Origin: Candidatus Heimdallarchaeum aukensis
GTDB lineage: Archaea > Asgardarchaeota > Heimdallarchaeia > Heimdallarchaeales > Heimdallarchaeaceae
Direction: 5' to 3'
Length of the DNA: 64,000 bases
NCBI GenBank assembly: GCA_021513695.1
Contig: CP084166.1
Coordinates: 640,001 to 704,000, forward strand
Both the position numbers and the translations under genes were made by a program. This document shows, in pieces, positions 44,478 to 59,277 of the stretch (its first letter is position 1; each line of letters opens with the position of its first letter). The notes beneath the pieces were generated by a model. It saw only the letters and a program-made list of their open reading frames with translations. It ran no database searches and was not told where the DNA came from.

Positions 44478-45563
44478 ATGAAAATTAATCGTATTTACAA
44501 GAGAGATTGTATTGAAGGATTAAAGCAACTTCAAGAAAATTCAGTGGATTTAATATTTGCAGATCCACCTTATAATCTACAATTGCGTAACGAACTTTAT
44601 CGCCCTGATCAATCCAAAGTAGATGCGGTTAATGACAAATGGGATAGATTCTATTCTTTTGAAGAATATGACAATTTCTCTTTAAAATGGCTGAAAGAAT
44701 GCAGACGTGTATTGAAACCCACAGGCTCTATATGGGTAATAGGGACTTATCATAATATTTTCAGGATAGGTAAAATTATGCAAGATTTAGGTTTTTGGAT
44801 ACTAAACGACATAATTTGGGTAAAAACAAATCCTATGCCCAATTTTAAAGGAACAAGGTTCAATAACGCACATGAGACACTTATTTGGGCTGCTAAAGAA
44901 AAAAATGCAAAACAAACTTTTCATTACAAATCAATGAAGATTATGAATGATAATAAACAAATGCGAAGCGATTGGTATTTACCTATTTGTATTGGTAATG
45001 AAAGGTTAAAAAATAATGGAAAGAAGGTTCATTCTACTCAGAAACCTGAATCTCTCCTCTACCGTATAATTTTATCTTCTTCCAATGTTGGAGATCTAGT
45101 TTTAGACCCTTTTATGGGTACAGGAACAACTGCTGCTGTTGCTAAAAAACTGCGAAGGAATTACATCGGATTTGAGATTGATGATTATTACATTAGTGAA
45201 GCAGAAAAAAGAATTGCTAAAGTTTTACCTTTATCCGAAGATCTTTTAGATTACAAAATTGAAAAAAAACCTCCTAAAGTATCCTTTGGTATGCTAATTG
45301 AGAACAAATACATCAATCCGGGGGATTTTCTTTATTCCAGAGATTTAAAACACAAAGCAATTATTAAGGCTAATGCTTCAATTGAATATGAAGGGAAAGT
45401 GGGTTCTATTCATTCTATTAGTGCTTTTATTTTAGGAAAAAAAGCAAATAACGGTTGGGAATTCTGGTACTTAAAGAATAGCTCTGGTGAATTGGTATCT
45501 ATTGATTCACTAAGAAAAAAATTCGCAGTGAATGAATGGGGTGAAGAATGGAATGTCATCTAA
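44478..45563 (+). CDS. Beta-class N6-adenine (or N4-cytosine) DNA methyltransferase, CcrM/M.HinfI-like, with a C-terminal non-catalytic extension of about 120 aa
   Basis: Motif IV FADPPYNLQL near the N-terminus. Motif I VLDPFMGTGTTAAVA near residue 210. This is the permuted beta-class order, and there is a CcrM-like C-terminal domain. Confidence 0.85.
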   Translation: MKINRIYKRDCIEGLKQLQENSVDLIFADPPYNLQLRNELYRPDQSKVDAVNDKWDRFYSFEEYDNFSLKWLKECRRVLKPTGSIWVIGTYHNIFRIGKIMQDLGFWILNDIIWVKTNPMPNFKGTRFNNAHETLIWAAKEKNAKQTFHYKSMKIMNDNKQMRSDWYLPICIGNERLKNNGKKVHSTQKPESLLYRIILSSSNVGDLVLDPFMGTGTTAAVAKKLRRNYIGFEIDDYYISEAEKRIAKVLPLSEDLLDYKIEKKPPKVSFGMLIENKYINPGDFLYSRDLKHKAIIKANASIEYEGKVGSIHSISAFILGKKANNGWEFWYLKNSSGELVSIDSLRKKFAVNEWGEEWNVI

Positions 45564-45627
45564 AAAGAATAACCTTCAACTCACATTAAATGGAAAAGGT
45601 TATCATAGATAAGATCCATTTAGCTTT

Positions 45628-46938
45628 ATGAAGTTATCCAAGGACAAAGTCAACTATCTTATTTTTGAAGGTGGTGGAGGAAAAGGAGTTACTTATATTG
45701 GGGCTTTAGAAGCTCTTGAAGAATTAGGTATTCTCAGATTTACTGAAAAAAATATAGGAGAAAAGGTTGTTACTCATCTTGCTCCAAATTGCTTGAAAGG
45801 AGTAGCTGGAACTTCAGTTGGTTCACTTTTTGCTTTACTTGTATCTTTGGGCTACAACTCACAAGAAATAAGAGAATTATTAAAAAGCAACTTAACTGAC
45901 GAGTTTCTAGATACTATCGAATTTGGTTTGATTCAATCAATTTATAGCCAGCTTACTGAACAATCTTTTGTTAAAGACCCTCAACTAGAAATATCTACAA
46001 ATTTCGTTGAGAATAAATGGTCTTCTTTTCTTCAAAAACAAGAGAAATCTTTCAAAGATTTGTTTGCTTACCCTCTTAAAATGATCAAGCAAGCAAATTA
46101 TTATATCCTCTCAATGTTCATCAAATTTCTTCTTTATTATGAATCAAGAAAAATAAAGAATGAAAAACCATCTAACGAAACAGAAACTACATTTATCCCT
46201 ACATTACGAGACTTTGCGCAGTCAAAAACTCTAAAAAATGCTGTAGATAAAATTTTGGATAAACCAGCCGATGCTCTTAATAGTCTTAAATATGAATTTG
46301 GTTTTTTCCTTGGCAATGGGGCAAGAGAAGTTATAGATAGGTTAATTGAAGAAAGAACAGGAGTGAAAAACTGTACTTTCAATCAATTTTATGAAATTTT
46401 AGGAATTGATCTTGTTATTACTTCTTTTGATTTACAGACAAAACAAGTTGAATACTTAAGAAAAGATTCTAAATGGAAAAACCTTTGTGTGGCAGATGCA
46501 GTAAGAATGTCAATTTCTATTCCATTAGTCTTCAAACCTGTTGTTATTAACATGAAAGACGAGTTCATTCTTCCAATTACAGATGATGTTTCTTATGCTC
46601 ATTATTTCATTGATGGTGGAGCAGCAAACAATTTTCCCCTTCATGTTTTTGATGATAGAGAAGACAAACTAAATCCCTACGTTCTAGGATTTACTCTATC
46701 GTATAAAAGACAATATAATCCTTTTATTGAAGAAATTACTTTCTTTGAATATTTAGAAGATGTCTTCCTTTCAGTTCTTAAACAGACAACAAATTTACAA
46801 TTCAAAAAGAAAGAAGAACAAGAACAAGTGATAGAACTTGACCCAGAGTACATAAAAGTACTTGACTTTTCTTTTGATGAGATACCAGAAAAAACAATAC
46901 AAAAAGCAAAGAAGAAAACACTAGAATATTTCAAATGA
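45628..46938 (+). CDS. Patatin-like phospholipase (PNPLA) family protein
   Basis: Oxyanion hole GGGGKG, nucleophile elbow GTSVGS, and catalytic Asp motif DGGAANNFP. Confidence 0.85.
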   Translation: MKLSKDKVNYLIFEGGGGKGVTYIGALEALEELGILRFTEKNIGEKVVTHLAPNCLKGVAGTSVGSLFALLVSLGYNSQEIRELLKSNLTDEFLDTIEFGLIQSIYSQLTEQSFVKDPQLEISTNFVENKWSSFLQKQEKSFKDLFAYPLKMIKQANYYILSMFIKFLLYYESRKIKNEKPSNETETTFIPTLRDFAQSKTLKNAVDKILDKPADALNSLKYEFGFFLGNGAREVIDRLIEERTGVKNCTFNQFYEILGIDLVITSFDLQTKQVEYLRKDSKWKNLCVADAVRMSISIPLVFKPVVINMKDEFILPITDDVSYAHYFIDGGAANNFPLHVFDDREDKLNPYVLGFTLSYKRQYNPFIEEITFFEYLEDVFLSVLKQTTNLQFKKKEEQEQVIELDPEYIKVLDFSFDEIPEKTIQKAKKKTLEYFK

Positions 46939-47032
46939 TAATAATTTATTTGTTTCATCCAATGCAAAAATTTAGTAATCATTAAGAAAACTAACAGAAA
47001 TGTTTTTTTATCTTAAATAGATTTTTTTTTGA

Positions 47033-48100
47033 ATGATTAGAGAATTAAACGTTGAGAACTTCAAATCAATAGAAAATCTTTATCTTAAATGCTCAAAAAT
47101 TAACATCTTTATTGGAGAACCAAACGTAGGAAAATCAAATATTATTGAGTCTTTAGGATTGTTTTCATCTATTTTATTTCATGAAAATTCTTCAAATAGA
47201 AATGAAGCTATTAACAAAGAGTTTATACGTTATAACAATTTTATTGACCTATTTCATAACAGTAATCTAAGAAAAAAAATCAAAGTATCTACAGATAAAT
47301 ACCAAATTGAAATTAGAGCGGAAGAAAATAATTTCTATATTTCTGTTTATCGAATTCAACTAAGTTCAGAAGAAAAAGATAAAAACTTTAGTAAAAGAAT
47401 CATTAGATCAGAAAATATCTTACAAGTAGAAGCAATAGCAAATTCACCTGGAATATATTCTTGGAACTTTAAGACTAATTTTAACGATTTTAAGAAAGAA
47501 AAGAATTTCCCAAAGATAATGTATTATAAAAATATGGAAACAGAAAAATTCGTTTCTCTAAACTTTGATTTTTTGAATCCTCCATCAGGAAATAACCTTC
47601 TAACTATATTGCAAACAAATACAGATCTTTACAAAAAAATCAATGAGATACTTTTTTCTTTCAATCTCAAATTAATGCTGAGAGAAGTAGAAAAGACTAT
47701 CGAACTTGTAAGAGATATAGAAGGAAAATTAATTGCTATTCCCTTTAAGCTAGTTGCTGAATCTTTCCATCAACTTTTCCTTTTACTAAGTGCGATGAAT
47801 ACATGTAAAGATTCTATTATCTGTTTGGAAGAACCAGAGACACATCTATTCCCAAAATATACAAAGTTAATAGCTGAACTCATAGCTAAAAATAAAAACA
47901 ATAATCAGTATTTTATTTCAACACACAACCCCTATTTTTTGATTTCATTAATAGAAAAAGCAAAAAAAGAAGATTTAAGTATTTTTGCAGTAAGTTTTCA
48001 GAATAATCATACAAAAGTTTCAAAAATACAAGAAAATGAGATAAGAGAACTCTTAGAAGGAGAAGATCCATTTTTTAACATCAATAAGTACTTCGAGTAG
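47033..48100 (+). CDS. AAA_21/ABC-type ATPase (OLD/abortive-infection-like ATP-binding protein)
   Basis: Walker A GEPNVGKSN, Walker B/D-loop ICLEEPETHLFP, and C-terminal ISTHNPYFL (H-loop), typical of the AAA_21 defence ATPase architecture. Confidence 0.75.
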   Translation: MIRELNVENFKSIENLYLKCSKINIFIGEPNVGKSNIIESLGLFSSILFHENSSNRNEAINKEFIRYNNFIDLFHNSNLRKKIKVSTDKYQIEIRAEENNFYISVYRIQLSSEEKDKNFSKRIIRSENILQVEAIANSPGIYSWNFKTNFNDFKKEKNFPKIMYYKNMETEKFVSLNFDFLNPPSGNNLLTILQTNTDLYKKINEILFSFNLKLMLREVEKTIELVRDIEGKLIAIPFKLVAESFHQLFLLLSAMNTCKDSIICLEEPETHLFPKYTKLIAELIAKNKNNNQYFISTHNPYFLISLIEKAKKEDLSIFAVSFQNNHTKVSKIQENEIRELLEGEDPFFNINKYFE

Positions 48101-48597
48101 ATGTCAATGATACTAGTTGAATGTTATGCTGATGAAAGATTAGTGAGAACACTTCTACCAGAATTATCTAAAAAAGAATATTCTCATGCAGGTAACAAAA
48201 CAGGGGTAATCAAAAGGTTAATTAAAATAAAAAATGGAAAAAAATACATTGGATTAGTTGATAGAGATCCCCACTCTAATCCTCCTGGTTTTTTCCACAA
48301 CTTTACTCTTCTGGAAAATCATGAAGAATCAAAAATATCTATTTACTTTTTCAAAAAAAAAACAATGCTAAACTTGTCGTTATTGAACCTGAACTTGAAG
48401 GATGGATTGTAAACATCGCTCATTCGATTCACTTTAAACTCAGAGATTATGGTTTACCTGAAGATCCAGATAAATTGCATGAGGTTATCAACGAAAAAAG
48501 AAACCTAGATAATTTCTCAAAGCTTGTTTCAGACTTACTACAAAAAAGTGTTCACCTTTCTAAATTAAAAAAAATTTTATCAAAAAGTATAGATTAA
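48101..48597 (+). pseudogene. DUF4276-like partner gene of the AAA_21 ATPase, split by a frameshift inside an A10 homopolymer
   Basis: ORF 48101..48412 (MSMILVECYADERLV...IGLVDRD) continues in another frame (NNAKLVVIEPELEGWIVNIAHS...SKSID) after the A10 run at 48353..48362. An A11 run would join the two into a protein of about 165 aa. The start overlaps the ATPase stop. Confidence 0.45.
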
Positions 48598-48613
48598 AAA
48601 AGAAAAAATTCAT

Positions 48614-49099
48614 TTAATCTATAACAGCTTTCTTGTTTTTCTTACCACTCATATATGAAATATTGATCTTTCCTATTTTTACATTTATTATTGATTTTTC
48701 AGTGAGATACTCCTTGTTCTTTTTTTCTGGTTCTTTTTCAAACTTCTCAATTAAAAGCTCTAAAGCTTTCTTTTTTTCTTCAAATTCCTCAATAAAGGTT
48801 ACGTTACTTTGGAAATGTACTGAAGCGTAATTATGGTCACATTCTCCTTCTAGGTAGCCAAAGTCAAGCATTGCTTCTCCCCAGATTAAATTGTTTTTTT
48901 CTAAAATTTCTATCTTTTTTCCTTTTTTAGCACAATGGAAGTAAATACACTTTTGATCATTATCAAGAACAAAGTTTAGGGTTACTAAATAGGGAATATT
49001 ATTGTTACACATCGCAATTGTAACATAGAGAGCTCTGTTTAAAATTCTCAATTGTTCTTCTTCATCTATAGCTTTTTCCTTTCTTCTTATTTCTCTCAA
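48614..49099 (-). CDS. PNPOx-like FMN-binding split-barrel protein (COG3467-like)
   Basis: Pattern ..EE..ILN.A.YVTIAM.NNNIPYLVTLNFV.D.....IYFHCAKKGKK...L, typical of pyridoxamine-phosphate-oxidase-related flavin proteins. Confidence 0.65.
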   Translation of the reverse strand: MREIRRKEKAIDEEEQLRILNRALYVTIAMCNNNIPYLVTLNFVLDNDQKCIYFHCAKKGKKIEILEKNNLIWGEAMLDFGYLEGECDHNYASVHFQSNVTFIEEFEEKKKALELLIEKFEKEPEKKNKEYLTEKSIINVKIGKINISYMSGKKNKKAVID

Positions 49100-49170
49100 A
49101 ATATTCAGCTCCTACAATAGAAATAGACTAAATACCCTTAAAAGTATTTATTAGGTGAAAAAAGGAAAAA

Positions 49171-50133
49171 TTAGAAGATTATACCTAGCAACCAGAGTAA
49201 AAAGGCCATTACCATAAACATAGATGCAAGTTTAAAAATCAGCCATGTGGTTTTTTCACTGGGCCTAATAAGATTCTTTATGGATAGAAAAATAAAAAAT
49301 AAAGCTGTTAAACAAGCGAGGATATGGATTACAATATTTACTTTTAGTGAAAGGCTGATTAAAATTGTAATGATTGCACTAATTATTGATGAAAGAGTTA
49401 TAACTATTATAGTTCTATCTTTTCCTTTCACTACAGGCCACATAGGAACACCAGCGAGTTGATATCCTTCTAGGTTTTTGGGTATCAAAGCTAATGTTAG
49501 AATGTGCATTGGTATCCAGGCTAGTATAAACACTCCAAACATTATTGCCAAAGAATCAATTTTGTTTATTGCTGCTGTTCTACCAGCAATAGCCGGTAAA
49601 GCTCCTGCTATTCCTCCAAAAAGAATTGAAAATCTTGTTCTTCTTTTTAACCAGTAAGAGTAGATAATCACATCAAAAAAAGCCCCCAATAAGATTACAA
49701 GTCCTGTAAGGGCATTTAGGAACACTACTGCACTCATAATTCCGCTAATTGTGAATACTATCCCATGTCCAACTACTGTTTCTTCTGCTATTTTTCCAGA
49801 TGCTAGAGCTCGATTTTTTGTTCTTTCCATTATCTTGTCGATATCTTGGTCAATGTACATATTTAGTAACGTTGATCCAGAGATAGAAAAAAAGAGGGCG
49901 ATTATTAACCAACTTAGGGTGAATAAACTAAAATCTTTCCACGAGCTTATTAAATAGGTGAGCACTCCAGTATATACAAGTAAAAAAGTCTGCTTTGTTT
50001 TGATTAGTTCAAAATAAACCTTAATAGGAAGAAAAAAAGGAATGATGTTCTCATTTTTACTTGTTCCAATGTTCACGTAGGCTTCTACATTTGAATTGTT
50101 AGTGTTGTATATATTTGGAGTTTCTTCAGTCAA
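49171..50133 (-). CDS. ctaB: Protoheme IX farnesyltransferase (heme O synthase, UbiA family)
   Basis: NMYIDQDIDKIMERTKNRALASG matches the CtaB/CyoE motif NxYxDRDIDxxMxRTxxRPL. The protein has nine transmembrane helices. Confidence 0.85.
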   Translation of the reverse strand: MTEETPNIYNTNNSNVEAYVNIGTSKNENIIPFFLPIKVYFELIKTKQTFLLVYTGVLTYLISSWKDFSLFTLSWLIIALFFSISGSTLLNMYIDQDIDKIMERTKNRALASGKIAEETVVGHGIVFTISGIMSAVVFLNALTGLVILLGAFFDVIIYSYWLKRRTRFSILFGGIAGALPAIAGRTAAINKIDSLAIMFGVFILAWIPMHILTLALIPKNLEGYQLAGVPMWPVVKGKDRTIIVITLSSIISAIITILISLSLKVNIVIHILACLTALFFIFLSIKNLIRPSEKTTWLIFKLASMFMVMAFLLWLLGIIF

Positions 50134-50150
50134 TTAATTCACCAATTAAA

Positions 50151-51623
50151 TTATTCTTCTAGATCTATGGATATCTTTTCTTTGTAAACCTTGCTTTGGA
50201 TTATTTTAACTAATTGATATACACAGAATATACCGATTGCAGTTAAAATTAGAACGATTCCAACATCTGTAAGATACATATACCATGCTGACATATCTGG
50301 CCATTTAAGCATATAGAACATAACAAATCCGAAAGCAAAGGTGCTTCCAATAGTTATTCCCCAACCTAATATTTCTCTTATCCACTTCTTTTTTATCCTA
50401 ATTGAATCAATGTACATCAATAAAATCATCATTGCAGATAAAGTTGCTAAAACGTGCCAATGACCAACATTATAAGCATATTCTAGTTCAAAAGGTCCAG
50501 CTCTCACTTCATCAAGATTCAAGGCAATGTATATTCCAGGAACAGTAACAACTAGATTAACCCATATGAATAAGAAATACAATCCTGAAAGCACAGAATC
50601 TTTGAAGATTGCGAGAAATTTCTTGTAAAAGGGAGCTTCATCATACTTTTCTCCTAGAACTTTTTTAGACACTTTTCTAAAACCATCAACAATCAACACA
50701 ATAGAAGCTAAAATTAAAATCGATACTCCAACATTTATTATCATGTGTGCAGATTCAACATCAGCTGGAACTAACCACCCACCAGCATCAGTAATAAGTA
50801 TACCTGGTATTATAGCTATTTGAGCAACAAGATACCATTTTCCTTTTGTTTTTGTAAATTTAAAGGCTATAAGTAAAATAGCAGCATCAATTAAAGCCAA
50901 CATAATATGCAAGTGTGCAACTATCATTCTAACATACACTGCTTCAGGAGTAAAACCACTATGATCGATTCTCACTCTTGCTTCAGCTATAAATGCTTCA
51001 AAATTGAGTGCTGAATCTGGATTTCCAAAATTAGCACCCACAATAGCACCAAGTGTAGCTGTAACTATTAAAGATAAACCTACAAGAACTAAATTCAAAT
51101 TTTCTAGATTAATCTTTCCAATTATTGGCCCTTCTTTACTCTCAGGAAAACTCTTTGTAGGCCATACTCCAACAACAAAAGCCATTCCTGAGTACCACAC
51201 TAAGCTTAATCCTACCACAAAAAGACCATGTAAAATCATATTTTCTTGGAAAATATATGCATAAGTTAATCCGCTAACACTTGTAAGCATCGAACCGTAA
51301 AAAAGAGGCCATTTTACATGTGATTCAGCTCTTTTTCTTATTGGAAACAAGTCTAGAATAAAGAATACAACAGCTGCAAGGAAAGGCATAGCTATAGAAT
51401 GGTAAAGCATAATTATTCTTCCTACTCTTGTTTCTTCAGATAGATCAATATTAATTAAGGAAAAACCTAATATTTTCTCAACAGGTTCAGAAAAGGAACC
51501 CAAGAAAAGTATTACTAAAATCAGGTAAGCAATTATAAACGTTATAAGACCAGTATATGTTCCAAACCCATAATTGAAAATATTTTTTATTCTTAATGAC
51601 AGATTTTCTTTTGTCTCTGACAT
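50151..51623 (-). CDS. Polytopic membrane protein (about 14 transmembrane helices) with two intramembrane HxH motifs and unknown function
   Basis: VAHLHIMLAL and VGHWHVLATL in predicted helices, plus several other conserved-looking His residues. It lies immediately downstream of ctaB. Confidence 0.6.
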   Translation of the reverse strand: MSETKENLSLRIKNIFNYGFGTYTGLITFIIAYLILVILFLGSFSEPVEKILGFSLINIDLSEETRVGRIIMLYHSIAMPFLAAVVFFILDLFPIRKRAESHVKWPLFYGSMLTSVSGLTYAYIFQENMILHGLFVVGLSLVWYSGMAFVVGVWPTKSFPESKEGPIIGKINLENLNLVLVGLSLIVTATLGAIVGANFGNPDSALNFEAFIAEARVRIDHSGFTPEAVYVRMIVAHLHIMLALIDAAILLIAFKFTKTKGKWYLVAQIAIIPGILITDAGGWLVPADVESAHMIINVGVSILILASIVLIVDGFRKVSKKVLGEKYDEAPFYKKFLAIFKDSVLSGLYFLFIWVNLVVTVPGIYIALNLDEVRAGPFELEYAYNVGHWHVLATLSAMMILLMYIDSIRIKKKWIREILGWGITIGSTFAFGFVMFYMLKWPDMSAWYMYLTDVGIVLILTAIGIFCVYQLVKIIQSKVYKEKISIDLEE

Positions 51624-51852
51624 ACATTTTTTTCAATTCAACAGTTTTAAAATATTTTGCATAAAAGAAGACAAAAAATATAGTTTAGAAATTAAAAATT
51701 AGGAATCAAATATTGTTATTTTTTATTCTAAGAGTTAATTTAAGAATAAAACCTTATCAATAAATCGCCAATCAAATTCAAAATAATACGCCTAGTTCTT
51801 ACTATGAAAAAATTTATTTTTGATAATATGATTCTTTAGAAGTGATTATTTA

Positions 51853-52698
51853 ATGAAAAAAGAAAATCTTGATTTACAACTAACTAATCTTTTTTTAGAA
51901 CTAGAAAAGAAAGTAGATGAGTTTAATAAAGAAACAATAGATAGTAAAGAGATTTTAACATATTTTAAAAAATATTATTTCGAATTTTACACTTCTTTCT
52001 CTTCTAAATTTTCTTACAAAAAACTCAAAGCCAAGAAAGAAAAATTGAGAATGAATACTACTTTCACAAGAGGAGAAAAGAAGTATCTTGACTCGTTATC
52101 AATGTTAAATCAATGTCTTATTAAAATAATTTCAAAAAACCAACAAAAAATTGTCACTTTACAATATTTTGACCCAAAAATAGAATCATTAGAAAAACTA
52201 ACAGAGAACTTTGCCACGCAGAAAGAAGAATCAAATGAGGTAATATCTGTTTTAAGAACTATAACGGATTGGTTTCTCAAAAATAGAGAATATTTCAATT
52301 CATTAAATTCAGAAAAAACAGAGCTAATAATTAGGAAATTACTCTCGACATCCAATATTCTTTCAAAAGTAAGTACCCAGATAGACCTCCAATTAGAGAG
52401 AATAAAATTCCAAGACTATTTAGAGAACCTTAAAAGCAGAAGAGAAGAAATACTGAAAAAAATCATTTATGAGCGAGAGAAAATTCCTCTGCAAGAACTT
52501 TCTCCTCTTTTAGAATTCAATGATGTATTAGAACTTGAAAGATGGATATTGCATTTACCTACTAAACTTTTCAAAATTGATGATGAAATAGTTATTATCA
52601 ATAAAGATGAGCAAGATTCTGACATTGTCTCTGCTATTTCAATGTTACTTGATAAATTCCAAGAGTATGAAGAATTAGGATTAGGTAAGAAGATTTAG
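51853..52698 (+). CDS. Hypothetical helical protein that shares a C-terminal module with the downstream LRR protein
   Basis: The C-terminus ...LLEFNDVLELERWILHLPTKLFKIDDEIVIINKD aligns with ...FLGFDELIDLENWILGLNLNNVTIKGNYLLIDQS of the next gene. Confidence 0.55.
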   Translation: MKKENLDLQLTNLFLELEKKVDEFNKETIDSKEILTYFKKYYFEFYTSFSSKFSYKKLKAKKEKLRMNTTFTRGEKKYLDSLSMLNQCLIKIISKNQQKIVTLQYFDPKIESLEKLTENFATQKEESNEVISVLRTITDWFLKNREYFNSLNSEKTELIIRKLLSTSNILSKVSTQIDLQLERIKFQDYLENLKSRREEILKKIIYEREKIPLQELSPLLEFNDVLELERWILHLPTKLFKIDDEIVIINKDEQDSDIVSAISMLLDKFQEYEELGLGKKI

Positions 52699-52707
52699 GT
52701 GATAGAG

Positions 52708-53637
52708 ATGAAAATCAAACTTAACACTATAAAAGGAGAAAAAGAAATATCTCTGAAAAAAAATCAGCATATAATTGATCTTTCGAATATGAATCTTTTA
52801 ACTATAAATTTAGATTTTTTGGAAGAATTACCAAATGTTGAAGCAATAAACCTGTCAAATAACAGTTTATCCAGGTTAGATTTAACCCCAATAGAAAACT
52901 GTTCTAACTTATCTTCTCTACGTTTATCTAATAATAATTTAGTCAAAATTAGACTAGAACCGCTAAGAAATTGTCCCAATCTCGAGATATTAGATTTATC
53001 AAACAATCAGCTTACAGAAATCGATTTATCTCCTATTATATCTTGTACTATGATCAAATCTCTTAATCTATCTTTCAATAAGTTAGAGTCTATAGATCTT
53101 TCTCCTCTTTCTCTTTTCCCTAATCTACGAACGCTTAATATTTCCAATAATAGACTTACCTTCGTCAACTTAAAAAAGATAGTTTTCTGCATTGCACTCA
53201 AAGAGCTAGATATTTCAAACAATAATTTCAGAACTTTAGATTTAACTCCAATTTTTGGTTTTAGAAATTTGGTTCGTTTATACTTATCTGAAAATGAAAA
53301 AAAAGTAGCTGACTGGGATGTTTCCTACTTAAAATATCAACAATTGTCAAGTGGTTTAAGATATTATTTTCAAGAGATTAAAAAACAAAACCTGAAAGTT
53401 CAAAGAAATGATATTTTCAAGAAAGTACTAGAAAAATACATATCAATCAGGCTTTCAAAACTAGCCATATTTCTCGGATTCGATGAATTAATAGATTTAG
53501 AAAATTGGATTTTGGGTTTAAATTTGAATAATGTCACCATAAAAGGGAATTATTTGCTGATAGATCAATCAGTTTATGTTGACATAGATAAGGAAATGAA
53601 TAAATTAATGCAAAGTTTTGACGGGTTAAATAGATAA
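52708..53637 (+). CDS. Leucine-rich repeat (LRR) protein
   Basis: Eight or more tandem 22-24-aa LRRs (LxxLxLSNNxLxxIDLSPIxxC). The C-terminal module is described above. The ATG at 52708 is preferred over the GTG at 52699. Confidence 0.8.
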   Translation: MKIKLNTIKGEKEISLKKNQHIIDLSNMNLLTINLDFLEELPNVEAINLSNNSLSRLDLTPIENCSNLSSLRLSNNNLVKIRLEPLRNCPNLEILDLSNNQLTEIDLSPIISCTMIKSLNLSFNKLESIDLSPLSLFPNLRTLNISNNRLTFVNLKKIVFCIALKELDISNNNFRTLDLTPIFGFRNLVRLYLSENEKKVADWDVSYLKYQQLSSGLRYYFQEIKKQNLKVQRNDIFKKVLEKYISIRLSKLAIFLGFDELIDLENWILGLNLNNVTIKGNYLLIDQSVYVDIDKEMNKLMQSFDGLNR

Positions 53638-53700
53638 CAGATAAACTATTTAGTGAATGAAAATTTTTATTTGGAGTTTGAAAGAAAAGTAAAGATTTTC

Positions 53701-53952
53701 TTAATTTTCTTTTAAAGAATAAATTAACTTTAATTTTTCCATAGCTTCTTGAATAGGCAATTCTCTGAGTTTTGAAGCTTGCTCTAAATGTTCATTACAA
53801 AACCATTCTGCATTTATTGGATGACCAACCTTTCCTTCTCTTTCCATTTTTTTATTCCATTCTTTAACTTCCTCAGTTTCTTTGAAATAGATTATATCTC
53901 CAGTTCCTGGTGAAAATCTCTTTCCACAGATAACACAAATTGGGGGTTTCAT
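53701..53952 (-). CDS. Small zinc-ribbon-like protein
   Basis: MKPPICVICGKRF...WFCNEHL gives CxxC...CxxH. The protein is 83 aa. Confidence 0.4.
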   Translation of the reverse strand: MKPPICVICGKRFSPGTGDIIYFKETEEVKEWNKKMEREGKVGHPINAEWFCNEHLEQASKLRELPIQEAMEKLKLIYSLKEN

Positions 53953-54126
53953 TAGAAATAAACAATTATCGTTCTTTAAAAAATTATCTTATTTTTTAGA
54001 TAATCAAAACAAATTTTCTTCTTTTTTTTCACAGACACTAGTTTTTAATTATAATATATCTAATTAGCATCTCCTAATACGGTTATGTTTAAATAATTTA
54101 GACTAACCTTATTTTTTTAGATAAAA

Positions 54127-54372
54127 ATGGAAAATATTATCGAAGCAAAGGATATTACAAAAACTTACAACGGAAAAACAATTCTGAATAAACTTTCATT
54201 TCAAGTCAAAAAAGGAGAATTATTCACATTAATTGGCCATAACGGTGCAGGAAAAACAACTCTTTTCAAGATTCTTACAGGACAAATTAAACAAGATAGT
54301 GGTACAGCAAGAATCTTTGATACTAATGTTGAATCGCAATTAAAGAGTAAGTATAAATTACGTATCAGCTAT
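54127..54372 (+). pseudogene. ABC transporter ATP-binding protein, N-terminal fragment interrupted by an IS insertion
   Basis: Walker A GHNGAGKTT ... RISY, then sequence unrelated to ABC ATPases. The conserved continuation VPQADLLWDNLTIKEN reappears at 56217. Confidence 0.8.
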
Positions 54373-56216
54373 GATTTACTTTTTTACGTAAAGTTTTTCG
54401 CACTCTGTCTTGCAAGAGAGAAAACTAAAGGAAGTTTAATCTCTTGAACTCAACCAAGCCATACAATGCCATGAAGGGGTTGAGACAGACATCATACACG
54501 AAACGTGGGAATCATAAAGAAGAATAGAAAGTTTTTCTTTCTTTTCTTCACTCCACGAGAGACAAAAAAAAGAATTACTCCTATAATAGAGAAGGAGTTA
54601 CTTTCCTTTTTGTCTACTGGGACTGCAACCAATGGCTGAGCCCTCGGCAAACAGTGAAATGGGAAGAACTGAACCTTTGACCAGTGAGGTAATCAGTGAT
54701 AGTTGTTCCTCGAGGACGAAAAAGATCTCCAAGGAACTTACGAGCGATATTCATTGCTCCTGTGAGGTCAGAGTGGAAAGTGTAATTGCAAGAGGAGCAA
54801 TGAACTAAACCTCTTACTGGACGGATAACTTTCCTTCCACAACGAGCACAGTGAGAAGATGTCCCTCTTTCATTCATTGTTAATATTCGGTGAGGTTCAA
54901 AACCTCGAAGTATCAATGCCCGACGGAGAAGAGCAAGAATAAGAGAAAAGTTCCACCGATGAAGTTTCCTGCGAAACTTACGAGTACTTTTACCTTTTCC
55001 TTTCTCCTCACGAACATGTTTAGGATAACCTACAACGACGAAAAGGTCATATATTCGCGCATAAGTCTCTATCGTCTGCACGATGTCGCTTACAAATTGG
55101 TAAATATAGGCTCGTTTAACGTTTCTATATCTTCTTCGGAGGAGACTAAGAAAACGATAAACTTGGTGTTTTTTACCCGACTGGTCATTTAAAGCCGCTT
55201 TCCTCTGAAGACGGGAAAGTTTGAGTTTATATCGATGATTGACTCTATTCCACTGTTTGGTATACCAGAACTTTATCTCTTTGTTTGTTAATTTCTTTTT
55301 AGGGGTCAGTAACACTCCTGTAGCAGGAATGTTTATCCCTATATCTATTCCCAGCACAGCTGGGGGAAGAGAAGAAGAACTTTTTTCTTCAGGAGGATAA
55401 AAAGAAGAAGGAAGAACTTTTAATTGGAAATACACCCACCACTCACGTGTAGAACGTTTATATCTTAGTTCTAGACTTTTTATTCTTCCTTTCTTTAACT
55501 CCTTCTGGTGGAAATCACTCATCTCTAAAGGTAACCATATTTTCTGATGATAAGGGGTGTTTCTTTTCCACGTATCTAACGAGTCTCTTATCCCCACCCA
55601 CCAACGAGTGAGAGTGTTATTCTTCTCTTTTGGTAGATGAACGAGAATGAACCTCTTTGCATTAATTAGTTGTTTTCTAGCTCTCTTTATTGGAGGACGA
55701 GTATTGTTAGGCCTATACCCTTGTTCATATAGTTGCACGCCTATATCTCTACATTCTTGGAATTCATTGTGAGAACAATAAAGGAACATTTTCTTAAGAT
55801 CGTGAGGAACAGTCTTTCTTCTCTCTTCTTCTTTAACTTTTGAAGTAGTTAGCGTCAGTTCATCTAGTTTTCCTCTATGTACTCTTATTTTCCCTCTCTT
55901 AGTTTTAGTACATATTTTTCCTCTGTTATGATGTATTATTCTCACATACTTCTCTATTATCCTCGTGTCTCTCCCCGTTATTCTCCTTAACTTTTCCTTC
56001 TTCCTCGTCGTCAATACCTCATTCTTTATTCTCACTTTCAAGGTTTTGACGACGTCCTCCATCTTTCTCTTTTCTCCTTCTTTCCTCTTTTTTTGTTTCT
56101 TCTTCTCTTTTTTATTCTACTTTTTTTCCCTATAAAAACCCCTCCCCTTCTTCTCTTCCCTTTTTTCTCTCTACATCTTCCTCAACAATTATAAATTACG
56201 CAAAAAATAGACGCAT
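54373..56216 (-). mobile_element. IS200/IS605-family element carrying only tnpB (IS1341-like) inserted into an ABC ATPase gene. It is GC-rich relative to the host
   Basis: Joining 54372 to 56217 restores a perfect ABC ATPase reading frame (..RISY|VPQADLLW..). The 1844-bp insert carries only tnpB. GC content is clearly higher than the flanks. Confidence 0.8.
54614..56062 (-). CDS. tnpB: TnpB (OMEGA) RuvC-like RNA-guided endonuclease
   Basis: RuvC-I AVLGIDIGINIPATGV. RuvC-III plus zinc finger NERGTSSHCARCG...HCSSCNYTFHSDLTGAMNIARKF. The protein is 482 aa. Confidence 0.85.
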   Translation of the reverse strand: MEDVVKTLKVRIKNEVLTTRKKEKLRRITGRDTRIIEKYVRIIHHNRGKICTKTKRGKIRVHRGKLDELTLTTSKVKEEERRKTVPHDLKKMFLYCSHNEFQECRDIGVQLYEQGYRPNNTRPPIKRARKQLINAKRFILVHLPKEKNNTLTRWWVGIRDSLDTWKRNTPYHQKIWLPLEMSDFHQKELKKGRIKSLELRYKRSTREWWVYFQLKVLPSSFYPPEEKSSSSLPPAVLGIDIGINIPATGVLLTPKKKLTNKEIKFWYTKQWNRVNHRYKLKLSRLQRKAALNDQSGKKHQVYRFLSLLRRRYRNVKRAYIYQFVSDIVQTIETYARIYDLFVVVGYPKHVREEKGKGKSTRKFRRKLHRWNFSLILALLRRALILRGFEPHRILTMNERGTSSHCARCGRKVIRPVRGLVHCSSCNYTFHSDLTGAMNIARKFLGDLFRPRGTTITDYLTGQRFSSSHFTVCRGLSHWLQSQ

Positions 56217-56951
56217 GTTCCACAAGCAGATCTTCTTTGGGATAATCTAACTATAAAAGAAAACATCTCTCTAATGGGTAATCTTTATGGATTAAAGAAA
56301 GCACAAATTGAAGAAAAAGCAAACAAATTTCTTACTGATTTTAATTTGGTTGAACATCAAAAAAAACTTGCTGATAAACTGTCTGGAGGTATGAAAAAGA
56401 AATTATCAATTGCTATGTCTTTGATGAATGATCCATTACTTCTATTTTTAGATGAACCAACTACAGGACTTGATGTTGAAGCAAGAACTTTGTTAATTGA
56501 AGATTTGAAAAGGCTGAAAGAAGAAGGAATAACCATTATTCTTACTACCCATTTAATGGAAGTAGCAGAATCACTAGCGTCAAAAGTTTTAATCATCGAC
56601 AAAGGACAAGTAGTTGCATTTGGAACAGTAGAGAATATAATTAATGAATCTATAGGTGATAAAATCCTCCAAGTAGGATTAATCAAAAGAAATAATGAAT
56701 TTGAAGATTTTATTGAAAAAGAAATCAAACATTCAAAAGAAGTCGATTATATTCAAATCAAACAAACATTTTTCTTCAAGGGAGAAAAGTTACCAGAACT
56801 TATACAAGTAATTTCTTCTTCTGAATTTATTAAAGACATCTATGAAATTAACATTAAAAAAAGTTCTCTAAAGGAAGCTTTTCTCTTTATTACTCATAAA
56901 ATTTACAAGAATGGGAATAACTTTAATTCTTTACTGGAGGTTCAAAAATGA
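56217..56951 (+). pseudogene. ABC transporter ATP-binding protein, C-terminal fragment separated from its N-terminal part by the tnpB element
   Basis: VPQADLLWDNLTIKEN..., signature LSGGMKKKLSIA, Walker B LLFLDEPTTGLD, H-loop TTHLMEV. The annotated ATG at 56274 is internal. Confidence 0.8.
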
Positions 56952-58354
56952 TCTTATACCTTACTCTTATTCGAATAAAACAGATAATCAGAGAAAAGGA
57001 ATTTTACTTTTATGTAATAGTTTTTCCATTATTCTTCTTAATTCTATTTGGTTTTCTTAGTTCAAGCTGGGTACAAACAACAACAACTATTCCTATTGGA
57101 TACATTTCTGAAGATTTAGGAATTAGTGATGATATCCTTAACGAAACAATAATGTTTGATGAAGCATTCTACAATTTCTTGAACAAACACCACTTAGAAA
57201 ATAATATCAAAACTTTCGAGATACATAATTATACAGAAGTAAATTCTTTGGAAAATGATATCAACAATAGAATTATCGATGGAGGAATAGTAATTCCTTT
57301 CGATTTTTCAGAACAAATGCTTAACATATCAAGGTTTTACAGTTCTCTTATTCTAGTTAATTTCCTTGGGAGTCAATTTAATACTTATGCTTCAGAATCT
57401 GCTAATATTTCTGCAGCTATTAACTCTCTTTCATCTCATCTTCAAGGAACAGCTAATTTATCTTTACTTTTCTATGGTGATATAACAATCGACACAGCTA
57501 TGACTTCTTATTCTGTTCTTTGGCAAGTGATAAACGACTATGTTCAAAACACAACTCTTTCTTACACTGAAAAGATTTGGAAGGTTATTAAGAATGAATT
57601 CGATCTATCTTTCAATTTCTCTTCTACAAGTAATGATTCTTCGCAAAACTCTATAACCTATAGTATTATCGTAGTTGATTCTGGAACAGGAGAATTAGTT
57701 ACCAACTTCAGAAAAGAATATATTTCCAATATCCTTCCAGGTCAAATTATACAAAGCATCCTAATGTCTTCAATCTCTGTAATATGGTTGACTGAAATGG
57801 AAGAACGAAAAGAAATTTTAAAACGATTAAAATTGACTAAACTTACTGCTGGAGGATATATAGGAAGTATAATTCTCGCATGGGGAACTATTGCTTTACT
57901 TCAAGGTTTATTTTTGATTACTGTTTCTGCTGTGCTTGGATTCTTCAGTTTTTCTGTTGGTCCATTAGCTTGGTTGATGACTATTTTGACCTTAGTTTTT
58001 CTAGGTTTCATTACTGCAACTATTTCTTTACTTGTGACAAGTTTCATTAAACCTCGAACGGCAACTCCAATATTAGTTCTTTCTAGTACTGTTCTGGCTA
58101 TGTTTGTAGGAGAATATTTCTTTCAAGTTAAACCTGCTTTTACTTTTGCAAAGAAAAACTTTACTTGGTTAGACATATTTCCTGTTCGACCAGCTTTCCT
58201 TGTTATGAAGAATGCTCTATTATTAGGAAAAAATGGAGACATCACTATTTTGCTTTTTGACTTTGCTCTTGTTGTTTTATGGACAATTTTAATATTTGCC
58301 ATAAGTAGTTTCGCTTTTAGCAAACTAAAACTCAAATATATAGAAAAAGAATGA
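56948..58354 (+). CDS. ABC-2 family transporter permease (partner of the disrupted ATPase)
   Basis: N-terminal transmembrane helix, large external domain, five C-terminal transmembrane helices. The start overlaps the ATPase stop (ATGA). Confidence 0.75.
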   Translation: MILYLTLIRIKQIIREKEFYFYVIVFPLFFLILFGFLSSSWVQTTTTIPIGYISEDLGISDDILNETIMFDEAFYNFLNKHHLENNIKTFEIHNYTEVNSLENDINNRIIDGGIVIPFDFSEQMLNISRFYSSLILVNFLGSQFNTYASESANISAAINSLSSHLQGTANLSLLFYGDITIDTAMTSYSVLWQVINDYVQNTTLSYTEKIWKVIKNEFDLSFNFSSTSNDSSQNSITYSIIVVDSGTGELVTNFRKEYISNILPGQIIQSILMSSISVIWLTEMEERKEILKRLKLTKLTAGGYIGSIILAWGTIALLQGLFLITVSAVLGFFSFSVGPLAWLMTILTLVFLGFITATISLLVTSFIKPRTATPILVLSSTVLAMFVGEYFFQVKPAFTFAKKNFTWLDIFPVRPAFLVMKNALLLGKNGDITILLFDFALVVLWTILIFAISSFAFSKLKLKYIEKE

Positions 58355-58368
58355 GAAATTCTTTTCTA

Positions 58369-59277
58369 TTATATCTTTTTTTGACTTTTTTCTTTTGAAA
58401 CAATTAATAACAAAATTCCAAGAACAATTAGCATTAGAGAAAAACTTAAACCCATTTTATTTGCAAACGACATTGTTTCCCACTCTCTTAAAAACAGAAC
58501 TGCATAAATTGTAGGAAATATGAGAACTGAAGAGTGGTAAATTGGAACTATTACAATCGCTTTAGCTTTTTGGTAAGAAATTTGCATTAGAATTGTTGCT
58601 ATGTTTGCTAGTAACATATTTAGTCCTCCTAAAAGCCAGAATTTAAAATCTGTTACATCGATTGAAATTGGTATAGAAAAGTATATACTCCAACCTTTCA
58701 TGTTAATTATTGCAAGCGACATTAATATCCCAGCAGTTAATGTGTTTGGTACTCCACTATATACAGAACTGAATTTGACTACAATTTCAAAAACAAGCAG
58801 TATTGTAGCAATAAAAAAGAGAATTAATTGAAAAATAACAGAAGGTTGATAAACATAAAGATTCCAAAACTCATCTATTGATGATTGAGTATAAGTTTGA
58901 GAAGAAAAAAAGCTAGATACAACTACTCCAACTATAATTAAAAGAAAGCTTACGATCTCTTTTACATTCATTTTCTCTTTTAGGATTAAATAAGAGAAAA
59001 TTGATAAAAAAACTAAACCAGAACCATTAATACTAGCTATTAACAAAATGTTTCCGTAAGAGTATGCAAATATTGCTGCAGGTACAGAAAAGGTAGTAAA
59101 CAGTAGTCCTAATAACCATACAGGGTTAGTGAAAAAGTTCTTTATTGTTTTCCTAATTCTCGTCTTTTCAATTGGCTCCATTGTCTCAGTAGCTTTTTTT
59201 TGTAAAACATAACCTAGCATAACAGAAGCGTTTCCAGCTAAAGCTATTGGGATTGCCAAGAGCGAAACATTAATCAC
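58369..59277 (-). CDS. EamA/DMT-like membrane protein
   Basis: About 10 transmembrane helices in two repeated halves. Confidence 0.55.
   Translation of the reverse strand: MINVSLLAIPIALAGNASVMLGYVLQKKATETMEPIEKTRIRKTIKNFFTNPVWLLGLLFTTFSVPAAIFAYSYGNILLIASINGSGLVFLSIFSYLILKEKMNVKEIVSFLLIIVGVVVSSFFSSQTYTQSSIDEFWNLYVYQPSVIFQLILFFIATILLVFEIVVKFSSVYSGVPNTLTAGILMSLAIINMKGWSIYFSIPISIDVTDFKFWLLGGLNMLLANIATILMQISYQKAKAIVIVPIYHSSVLIFPTIYAVLFLREWETMSFANKMGLSFSLMLIVLGILLLIVSKEKSQKKI

Follow-up and report, generated by a model that had tools for sequence, protein, structure and literature searches.

Four adjacent genes of Candidatus Heimdallarchaeum aukensis as probably three stacked units, one of them an OLD-like ATPase/mini-Toprim pair with a frameshifted partner gene

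Do four neighbouring genes in the genome of the Asgard archaeon Candidatus Heimdallarchaeum aukensis (contig CP084166.1) constitute a single defence system, or are they independent units that happen to lie side by side? The genes are found within a stretch of 64,000 nucleotides (nt) (positions 640,001 to 704,000 of the contig; hereafter the window, in whose coordinates positions are given) and code for a DNA methyltransferase (MTase; 44478–45563), a patatin-like phospholipase (45628–46938), an ATP-binding cassette (ABC) ATPase (47033–48100) and a small, frameshifted protein of the Toprim superfamily (48101–48597). As a preliminary description made from the sequence had stated, all four open reading frames (ORFs) are closely spaced and co-oriented, on the + strand. 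The same description saw in them a resemblance to a defence island; since the region is flanked by TldD/PmbA-like, PNPOx-like and UbiA genes, it is not a classical defence island.

We consider it probable that the MTase, the patatin and the ATPase/Toprim pair are three stacked, independent units, and that the nuclease gene of the pair is out of frame by slippage in an A-run. The same locus was compared in four further public assemblies: a Logan assembly of SRR15988954 (L001), with 100% identity to the window across 13.5 kb, and three Joint Genome Institute (JGI) metagenome contigs (L002, L003 and L004), 99.5–99.9% identical to it. The complete four-gene order was seen only in such near-identical strains, and the order patatin–ATPase–small gene is kept in a lineage that is 92–95% identical in DNA. 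In the nearest species-representative genome, that of Ca. Heimdallarchaeum endolithica PR6 (L012; DNA identity 87–92%), the MTase and patatin genes are still adjacent (95% and 90% amino acid (aa) identity, respectively), and a 3.2-kb insertion (L012 3600–6800) has placed an IS-like 232-aa gene and unknown ORFs of 216 and 474 aa between PmbA and the MTase, upstream of the latter. An inversion of roughly window positions 46956–58709 has its breakpoint 17 nt past the patatin stop codon (L012 9328–10258), so that the ATPase pair no longer adjoins the patatin gene in PR6; the PR6 segment compared spans 17 kb and the pair may lie just beyond it. Outside the genus, tblastn searches for the MTase, the ATPase and the small gene gave no homologue within 8 kb of 27 other Heimdall/Asgard patatin loci, and neither patatin nor a CcrM-type MTase was among the recurrent families listed for 150 ORFs flanking 80 loci of the ATPase pair. 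The expected conservation of the four-gene order in relatives is therefore confined to the genus, and a phospholipase licensed by the ATPase as an abortive-infection effector, as had been suggested, is without comparative support: the conserved partner of the ATPase is the small Toprim protein. Of the two arrangements that had been envisaged, one multigene system or two stacked ones, the stacked arrangement comes nearer to what is observed and the single system does not hold.

The ATPase/Toprim pair is, in fact, the sole conserved unit of the four-gene stretch. The ATPase gene is followed by a partner gene of 148–163 aa in every context looked up, and the two were not fused at any locus examined. 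A scan of metagenome contigs with the ATPase gave the 80 loci mentioned above (30–40% identity), in which the partner was sought with a hidden Markov model (HMM) of the small family. An intact partner of ~155 aa was present in 61 of them, beginning between −13 and +29 nt relative to the ATPase stop codon; in the remaining loci the partner was split across frames (three), partial (about nine, four of these by the contig end) or absent (three), or there was no room for it (four). The 150 flanking ORFs comprise 120 Pfam families, none observed more than four times, with no recurrent third gene. They are often genes of toxin-antitoxin, defence or mobile kinds, among them WYL regulators, HmaC, other AAA_21 ATPases, HepT/NTP_transf_2 and CcdA toxin-antitoxin genes, MTases, AbiEi and Cmr4/5, while single loci adjoin a Piwi-domain gene, nSTAND3/TPR, DUF4145, HNH or YaaC. 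Tight pairing, variable flanks and the lack of a recurrent third gene together point to a self-contained accessory cassette, which, by analogy with known systems, is probably a defensive or toxin-like module; among the three units, only this pair is a plausible defence module.

Two observations on the surroundings of the pair are worth recording. The highest flank counts (L097–L175), four of the 150 ORFs each, were those of the Y-family polymerase (IMS), WYL/WCX/PafC-type regulators and radical SAM proteins; the IMS and WYL-type counts may reflect a link to DNA damage or merely related contigs. On a metagenome contig (L009 725–3617), a pair with 54% identity stands beside a 494-aa protein with a weak match to a Piwi domain and its 478-aa partner, which may constitute a prokaryotic Argonaute module.

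The ATPase (355 aa) matches the Pfam families AAA_15 (1.2e-14) and AAA_21 (8.6e-13), both of the OLD-ABC type, as well as SMC_N, so that its earlier assignment as an OLD/AAA_21-type ATPase is borne out at the superfamily level. The elements of an ABC-type ATPase are intact (Walker A, Walker B and H-loop), the residues G28xPNxGKSN36, E266EPE269 and T297HNP300 being invariant in the family. Its 838 homologues, the named ones mostly archaeal, include proteins from Heimdallarchaeota, Bathyarchaeia, Aenigmatarchaeota, Syntrophoarchaeum and Pyrococcus abyssi. Among the PADLOC models, AbiLi gave the best match (2.6e-20, 71 bits, full length), and NsnB, HEC-01A, AriA, GajA and Old were also matched. 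By analogy with OLD, Gabija and PARIS, we infer that the ATPase is the sensor or regulator half of a two-gene module.

The ATG of the small gene at 48101 abuts the ATPase stop codon (TAG immediately followed by ATG), instead of overlapping it as described previously, and the conserved start of the family (MILVEC) corresponds to the ATG at 48107. An exhaustive HMMER search gave 684 cluster representatives of the small family at 50% identity, mostly archaeal, and nearly all of the representatives listed have 150–165 aa. In an alignment of 76 members, E5, D52, D54 and E97 are invariant and C6, D9, H27, G49, P55, P94, L96, W99 and L116 nearly so. The AlphaFold2 (AF2) model of the protein (predicted local distance difference test score, pLDDT, of 95.5) has an OLD-type Toprim fold, whose best structural matches are the OLD, GajA and AriB nucleases, and in which the conserved glutamate and the DxD motif provide an acidic metal site. 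An E-x3-D/DxD core was described for OLD-like proteins (bioRxiv 10.64898/2026.08.18.745644), E-x3-D followed by DxD being the catalytic core of OLD-like Toprim domains (PMC10568477). The confident model and the match to this core thus indicate that the small protein is, at the superfamily level, a predicted minimal OLD-type Toprim nuclease, and its invariant acidic residues and paired ATPase suggest a split ATPase/nuclease module of the OLD-like kind that is compact and mostly archaeal.

No catalogued family describes this protein well. The Toprim superfamily includes DUF4276, RloB and DUF4435, which stand alongside AAA15/21 ATPases in MADS, AbiL/Menshen and PARIS (PMC11464382; PMC12065111), and the small gene had been regarded as DUF4276-like. 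The HMM searches (Pfam, PADLOC) that had been proposed for the four proteins assigned the MTase, the patatin and the ATPase, but not the small gene to DUF4276 (PF14103): the repaired protein has no Pfam match even at E ≤ 10, and none of the 76 members reaches any Pfam family threshold or matches DUF4276 or RloB at E ≤ 0.01, which led us to reject the DUF4276 identity. DUF4435 was matched below threshold by the truncated ORF and by an intact orthologue (P0001) (21.7 bits against a cut-off of 27), and this weak match was observed in one of the 76 members, with only the N-terminal ~55 residues aligned. In PADLOC, the small gene of the window matches AriB and mad4 weakly. The PADLOC matches of the family are likewise all weak (AbiLii in 2/76 at 3e-4, mad4 in 2/76 at ~1e-4, AriB in 1/76), the NCBIfam MADS4 model gives an E-value of 0.021, and no match was obtained in PHROGs, in the PDB by sequence (noise only) or in BFVD by structure.

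How such a pair could work may be proposed from OLD, Gabija and PARIS. The ATPase gene would be translationally coupled to that of the ~160-aa Toprim nuclease, and the ABC ATPase, as an oligomer, would keep the nuclease bound or under control. Some trigger, infection for example, would alter the nucleotide state of the ATPase and thereby free or activate the Toprim protein. The latter, with a two-metal site made up of E5/D9 and D52/D54 and, in addition, E97, would then cut DNA or RNA and so halt either the invader or the cell. With its nuclease gene frameshifted, the module of the window would currently be off or, given slippage during transcription or on the ribosome, leaky, and the window allele may be decaying or toggling between on and off.

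The frameshift, already noticed in the preliminary description, could be located precisely. The first frame of the small gene ends at a stop codon at 48412, after 103 codons, and the protein resumes in another frame up to the stop codon at 48597. Alignment of the five assemblies places the shift within a run of ten adenines (48353–48362), where the gain of one A or the loss of two restores a protein of 164–165 aa; intact orthologues, of 161–163 aa, exist. The run is A10 in the window and in L001, A9 in L002 and L004 and A8 in L003, and only the A8 allele is in frame and intact. The five assemblies are otherwise identical throughout the small gene, the A-run being the sole difference. It is also the longest homopolymer of the window. 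The region common to the assemblies has nine homopolymers of at least 8 nt, of which it alone varies; the remaining eight (8–9 nt, including a T9) are constant wherever they could be located. The tract thus has the make-up of a phase-variable sequence, that is, a repeat within an ORF, with lengths that switch the frame among assemblies 99.5–100% identical.

In the lineage represented by L005 and L006 (92% DNA identity) the small gene is intact (162 aa, 84% aa identity) and has no A-run at this position, where orthologue P0001 reads YRENNAKL; recoding at a conserved site can thus be set aside. A programmed frameshift conserved in the family was rejected on the same grounds, and because other split loci break elsewhere. 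The gene is disrupted by a deletion in L114, by a 7-nt duplication in L149 and by a further frameshift in L162. At a second Heimdallarchaeaceae ATPase/Toprim locus (L091 3730–4208; ATPase 43% identical), the Toprim protein is split into 37 and 122 aa where a short A-run shifts the frame by one base, and the same gene calls of 37 and 122 aa occur in L092 2550–3028. This second locus, observed in two samples, comes from the same enrichment samples, and a patatin paralogue lies 6.6 kb off on the same contig. Downstream of the ATPase P0021, a full-length Toprim-family frame without an in-frame ATG (KDDIVECKPD..., L094 10017–10984), where no gene is called, has either a start-proximal frameshift or a non-canonical start.

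The A-run is read most economically as the place where slippage has inactivated a potentially toxic nuclease gene, with reversible on/off switching of this gene as a live alternative. On/off switching of genes by homopolymers is common in bacterial pathogens, and to our knowledge, with no literature search aimed at the question, no archaeal case has been documented; the A10 tract could also permit some rescue, by transcriptional slippage or by a −1 ribosomal shift on A_AAA_AAA. A bolder interpretation, which we advance only tentatively and regard as rather unlikely, is that the ~330-aa ATPase and the ~155-aa mini-Toprim protein constitute an undescribed, mainly archaeal OLD-like class of immune or toxin systems, the smallest split form known and one absent from Pfam and PADLOC, whose nuclease is switched in this Heimdallarchaeum lineage by slipped-strand mutation between A8 and A10. 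If this is true, an Asgard archaeon would control an immune nuclease by means of a contingency locus.

One may also ask whether the A-run is biological at all, or whether sequencing or assembly error has broken, on paper, a nuclease gene that is intact in vivo. Errors are frequent in homopolymers of 8–10 nt, a single sample may have given both the window and L001, and relatives carry intact genes. An error of this kind would nevertheless have to produce three lengths in five assemblies (one from a Sequence Read Archive run, three JGI samples and the window), spare the eight other A/T runs of 8–9 nt in the same stretch and give A10 again in the independent Logan assembly, and the partner gene is independently disrupted elsewhere at sites that are not homopolymers. 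We therefore regard error as a doubtful explanation of the frameshift.

Still less probable is that the pair serves as a housekeeping module of DNA repair or recombination, either as a RecF/RecR-like mediator or as an SMC-like accessory. The N-terminus of the ATPase does match the recF model (6e-6) along with SMC_N, one ATPase homologue was deposited as "recombination protein F", the Toprim domain is also present in RecR (PMC10568477), some pair loci are found among housekeeping genes, and the IMS genes mentioned above are among the more frequent neighbours. Nonetheless, the named matches are scattered over archaeal groups in variable contexts, two ATPase homologues occur on one contig, and the partner is split or truncated in roughly one in ten loci. 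The structure of the partner also speaks against this role, given its OLD, GajA and AriB matches, the absence of RecR among the 60 structural matches listed and the invariance of the full catalytic acidic set.

The first of the remaining genes codes for a protein of 361 aa with a full-length match to the Pfam family N6_N4_Mtase (7.1e-70; 235.8 bits, cut-off 26.7), in which the catalytic DPPY motif (as FADPPY) and the SAM-binding FxGxG motif (in DPFMGTGTT) can be read, and with a match to RAMA (1.7e-14). It thus consists of a catalytic domain and a C-terminal RAMA-like DNA-binding domain, and is 56% identical to Caulobacter crescentus CcrM (6pbd) over 342 aligned residues, C-terminal domain included. 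These data agree with its previous description as a CcrM-like, beta-class MTase. On the NCBIfam CcrM equivalog (NF050803) it scores 545.9 bits, under the 830-bit cut-off. As had also been noted, there is no restriction endonuclease beside it, the adjoining genes, to which this inspection was limited, being the PmbA/TldD-like and patatin genes. From its sequence, we read the protein as an orphan N6-adenine MTase of the CcrM/M.HinfI type, whose target is presumably GANTC; it was probably acquired from bacteria.

A possible depletion of GANTC, as a sign of a restriction partner, was considered and dismissed. Compared with dinucleotide shuffles, GANTC is scarce in the window (160 observed, 233 ± 15 expected, z about −5), a signal that vanishes with a higher-order model and a comparison of palindromes. 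Its observed/expected ratio, 0.68 in a first-order Markov model, rises to 0.89 at maximal order, equals that of TCNGA and is unremarkable among the 16 XYNY'X' palindromes. Given the maximal-order ratio and the like behaviour of comparable palindromes, we see no signal of GANTC avoidance. The most depleted XYNY'X' palindrome of the window is CTNAG (81 observed; observed/expected 0.33 at first order and 0.50 at maximal order), which is far more depleted than GANTC.

The second gene codes for a protein of 436 aa that matches Pfam Patatin (PF01734; 2.9e-22, 80.3 bits, cut-off 27.7) and has intact catalytic motifs, in agreement with its description as a patatin-like phospholipase. Across 36 orthologues there is no variation in the oxyanion loop GGGxKG (GGGGKG here), in the serine of GTSVG or in the aspartate of DGG. 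Approximately 70 full-length orthologues (40–58% identity) occur in Heimdallarchaeaceae, Lokiarchaeota and Promethearchaeota; the family, with a length of ~430 aa, is Asgard-wide, and several genomes have two or three paralogues, CSMAG_1088 having three (L022, L030 and L037). The AF2 model (pLDDT 78) shows a generic patatin fold, with a low-confidence helical insert of ~100 residues at about residues 130–230, for which Foldseek retrieved CapV, VipD, CapE, PlpD and ExoU at 12–16% identity. The NCBIfam CBASS_lipase model gives 22.4 bits against a cut-off of 200, and no CD-NTase cyclase stands beside the patatin gene in the window locus or in 28 orthologous loci.

When the ORFs flanking the patatin loci were clustered, synteny groups were small, of five loci or fewer. 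Elsewhere, the neighbours of the patatin genes code for M28/M20/M14 peptidases, an APH kinase, a 5'-nucleotidase, a glyoxalase, TetR, a PAP2 phosphatase and a radical-SAM protein; the genes for TetR, the PAP2 lipid phosphatase and the radical-SAM/SPASM protein adjoin one paralogue group. The Asgard-wide spread and the metabolic neighbours give the patatin the profile of a lineage-typical lipid hydrolase rather than that of a defence effector. It is probably not part of the ATPase module, and local genome history would have placed it beside the pair. In related assemblies the patatin ORF is broken by internal deletions of 38, 44 and 85 bp (L002 1423–2634; L005 2–795), equivalent to window positions 46098–46135, 46694–46737 and 46721–46805, which may represent strain-level decay or assembly artefacts. 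Mollusc EF-hand-patatin proteins match ~18–35% of the patatin query at 35–50% identity, ranking below many unnamed metagenomic and some bacterial proteins. A viral origin was also considered and rejected: the small protein and the patatin have no PHROG match, no BFVD structural match was found, and phage methylases are farther from the MTase of the window (37%) than is CcrM from Caulobacter.

That all four genes build one integrated system, in which the MTase would mark self, the ATPase/Toprim pair sense infection and the patatin execute abortive infection, we hold to be highly improbable: it would fit the common orientation and close spacing, the order kept in near-identical strains and, for three genes, at 92–95% DNA identity, the patatin effectors of CBASS, with CapV and CapE among the top fold matches, and the union of a methylase with the Mad3/Mad4 ATPase-Toprim pair in MADS (PMC11464382), but the association ends at the genus, where the PR6 inversion parts the patatin from the pair, 27 Asgard patatin loci are devoid of both MTase and pair, neither patatin nor a CcrM-type MTase recurs among the families of the 150 ORFs flanking the pair, patatin orthologues adjoin peptidase, TetR, PAP2 and radical-SAM genes instead, and the scores on the equivalog models of MADS and CBASS fall far short of the cut-offs.

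Several observations weigh against three independent units with a slipped nuclease gene, the reading that we favour. The four genes are co-oriented with gaps of just 64–145 bp, and co-transcription is possible. The adjacency of MTase and patatin genes, kept in PR6 at the identities given above, could be functional rather than merely recent. Pair loci of the Pyrococcus abyssi type (L093 and L094) are situated among housekeeping genes. Finally, the differences in the A-run could partly be assembly error, given that the constant runs measure 8–9 nt and none is as long as A10.

The wider surroundings add little. The G+C content of the window is ~30%, and neither tRNA genes nor Rfam families were found in its whole length. 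Around the ATPase/Toprim pair, a search for mobile-element borders showed just AT-rich, low-complexity chance repeats. At 51853–53637, an ORF of 281 aa precedes one for a leucine-rich-repeat (LRR) protein of 312 aa, both of which are 80–87% conserved in PR6; LRR "internalin-like" genes were mentioned for the HeimM2 mobile element (PMC8813620). The methylase and the patatin of this locus are not mentioned in the same work, in which the Ca. Heimdallarchaeum genomes were described.

What appears to be new here, judging from the sequences compared, is a compact, mostly archaeal and uncatalogued family of split OLD-like ATPase/mini-Toprim pairs and, in the nuclease gene of this Asgard archaeon, a hypervariable A-tract. 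Little is known so far about immunity in Asgard archaea, and OLD-like ATPase/Toprim systems are now being followed into eukaryotes (bioRxiv 10.64898/2026.08.18.745644). A minimal split pair would be well suited to studies of the gating of a Toprim nuclease by an ABC ATPase. The analysis also removes a false lead, by setting the patatin and the CcrM-like methylase outside any new four-gene system.

The relation to known systems differs for each unit. The MTase resembles CcrM and M.HinfI in its DPPY motif and in the 56% identity to CcrM, which extends over the full length, C-terminal domain included; its host is an Asgard archaeon, its score remains below the NCBIfam equivalog cut-off, and a cell-cycle role is not implied. 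The patatin shares with CapV and CapE of CBASS, both among its top Foldseek matches, the patatin fold with a Ser-Asp dyad, and differs from them in sequence (12–16% identity), in having no cyclase neighbour, in its ~100-residue helical insert and in its Asgard-wide occurrence beside metabolic genes. For the pair, the combination of an AAA15/21 ATPase with a Toprim domain is an established defence architecture, present in OLD, Gabija, retron, PARIS, AbiL and MADS3-4 (PMC11464382; PMC10568477). In PARIS, a "class 4" OLD-like system, the partner, AriB, has ~35 kDa (~300 aa) and a DUF4435 domain above threshold, whereas the small proteins have 148–165 aa and stay below it (21.7 against 27 bits, in one of 76 members); AriA has ~53–55 kDa, compared with ~320–355 aa for the ATPases of this family, and the ATPase of the window scores better to AbiLi and NsnB. 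PARIS is, in addition, carried on phages and satellites, while the present family is mostly archaeal. In OLD proteins of class 1 (P2 Old, Thermus OLD) and class 2 (GajA), ATPase and Toprim are fused, whereas they are separate polypeptides here, and the Toprim unit of the pair is minimal in comparison with OLD and GajA, with a short C-terminal helical bundle. Gabija has a GajB/UvrD partner that is missing from the pair, UvrD-type helicase domains not being among the recurrent families listed for the flanking ORFs. The NCBIfam models of MADS give low scores (MAD3, 42.5 bits against 420; MAD4, 14.9 against 160), and the other mad genes were not found in the window locus. With AbiL, the likeness of the ATPase extends over its full length (AbiLi, 71 bits), and that of the partners is weak (AbiLii in 2/76 at 3e-4, no Pfam RloB match). 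Both AbiL (AbiLi/AbiLii) and Mad3/Mad4 of MADS are nonetheless, like the pair described here, two-gene units composed of an ATPase and a protein of the Toprim superfamily (RloB, DUF4276).

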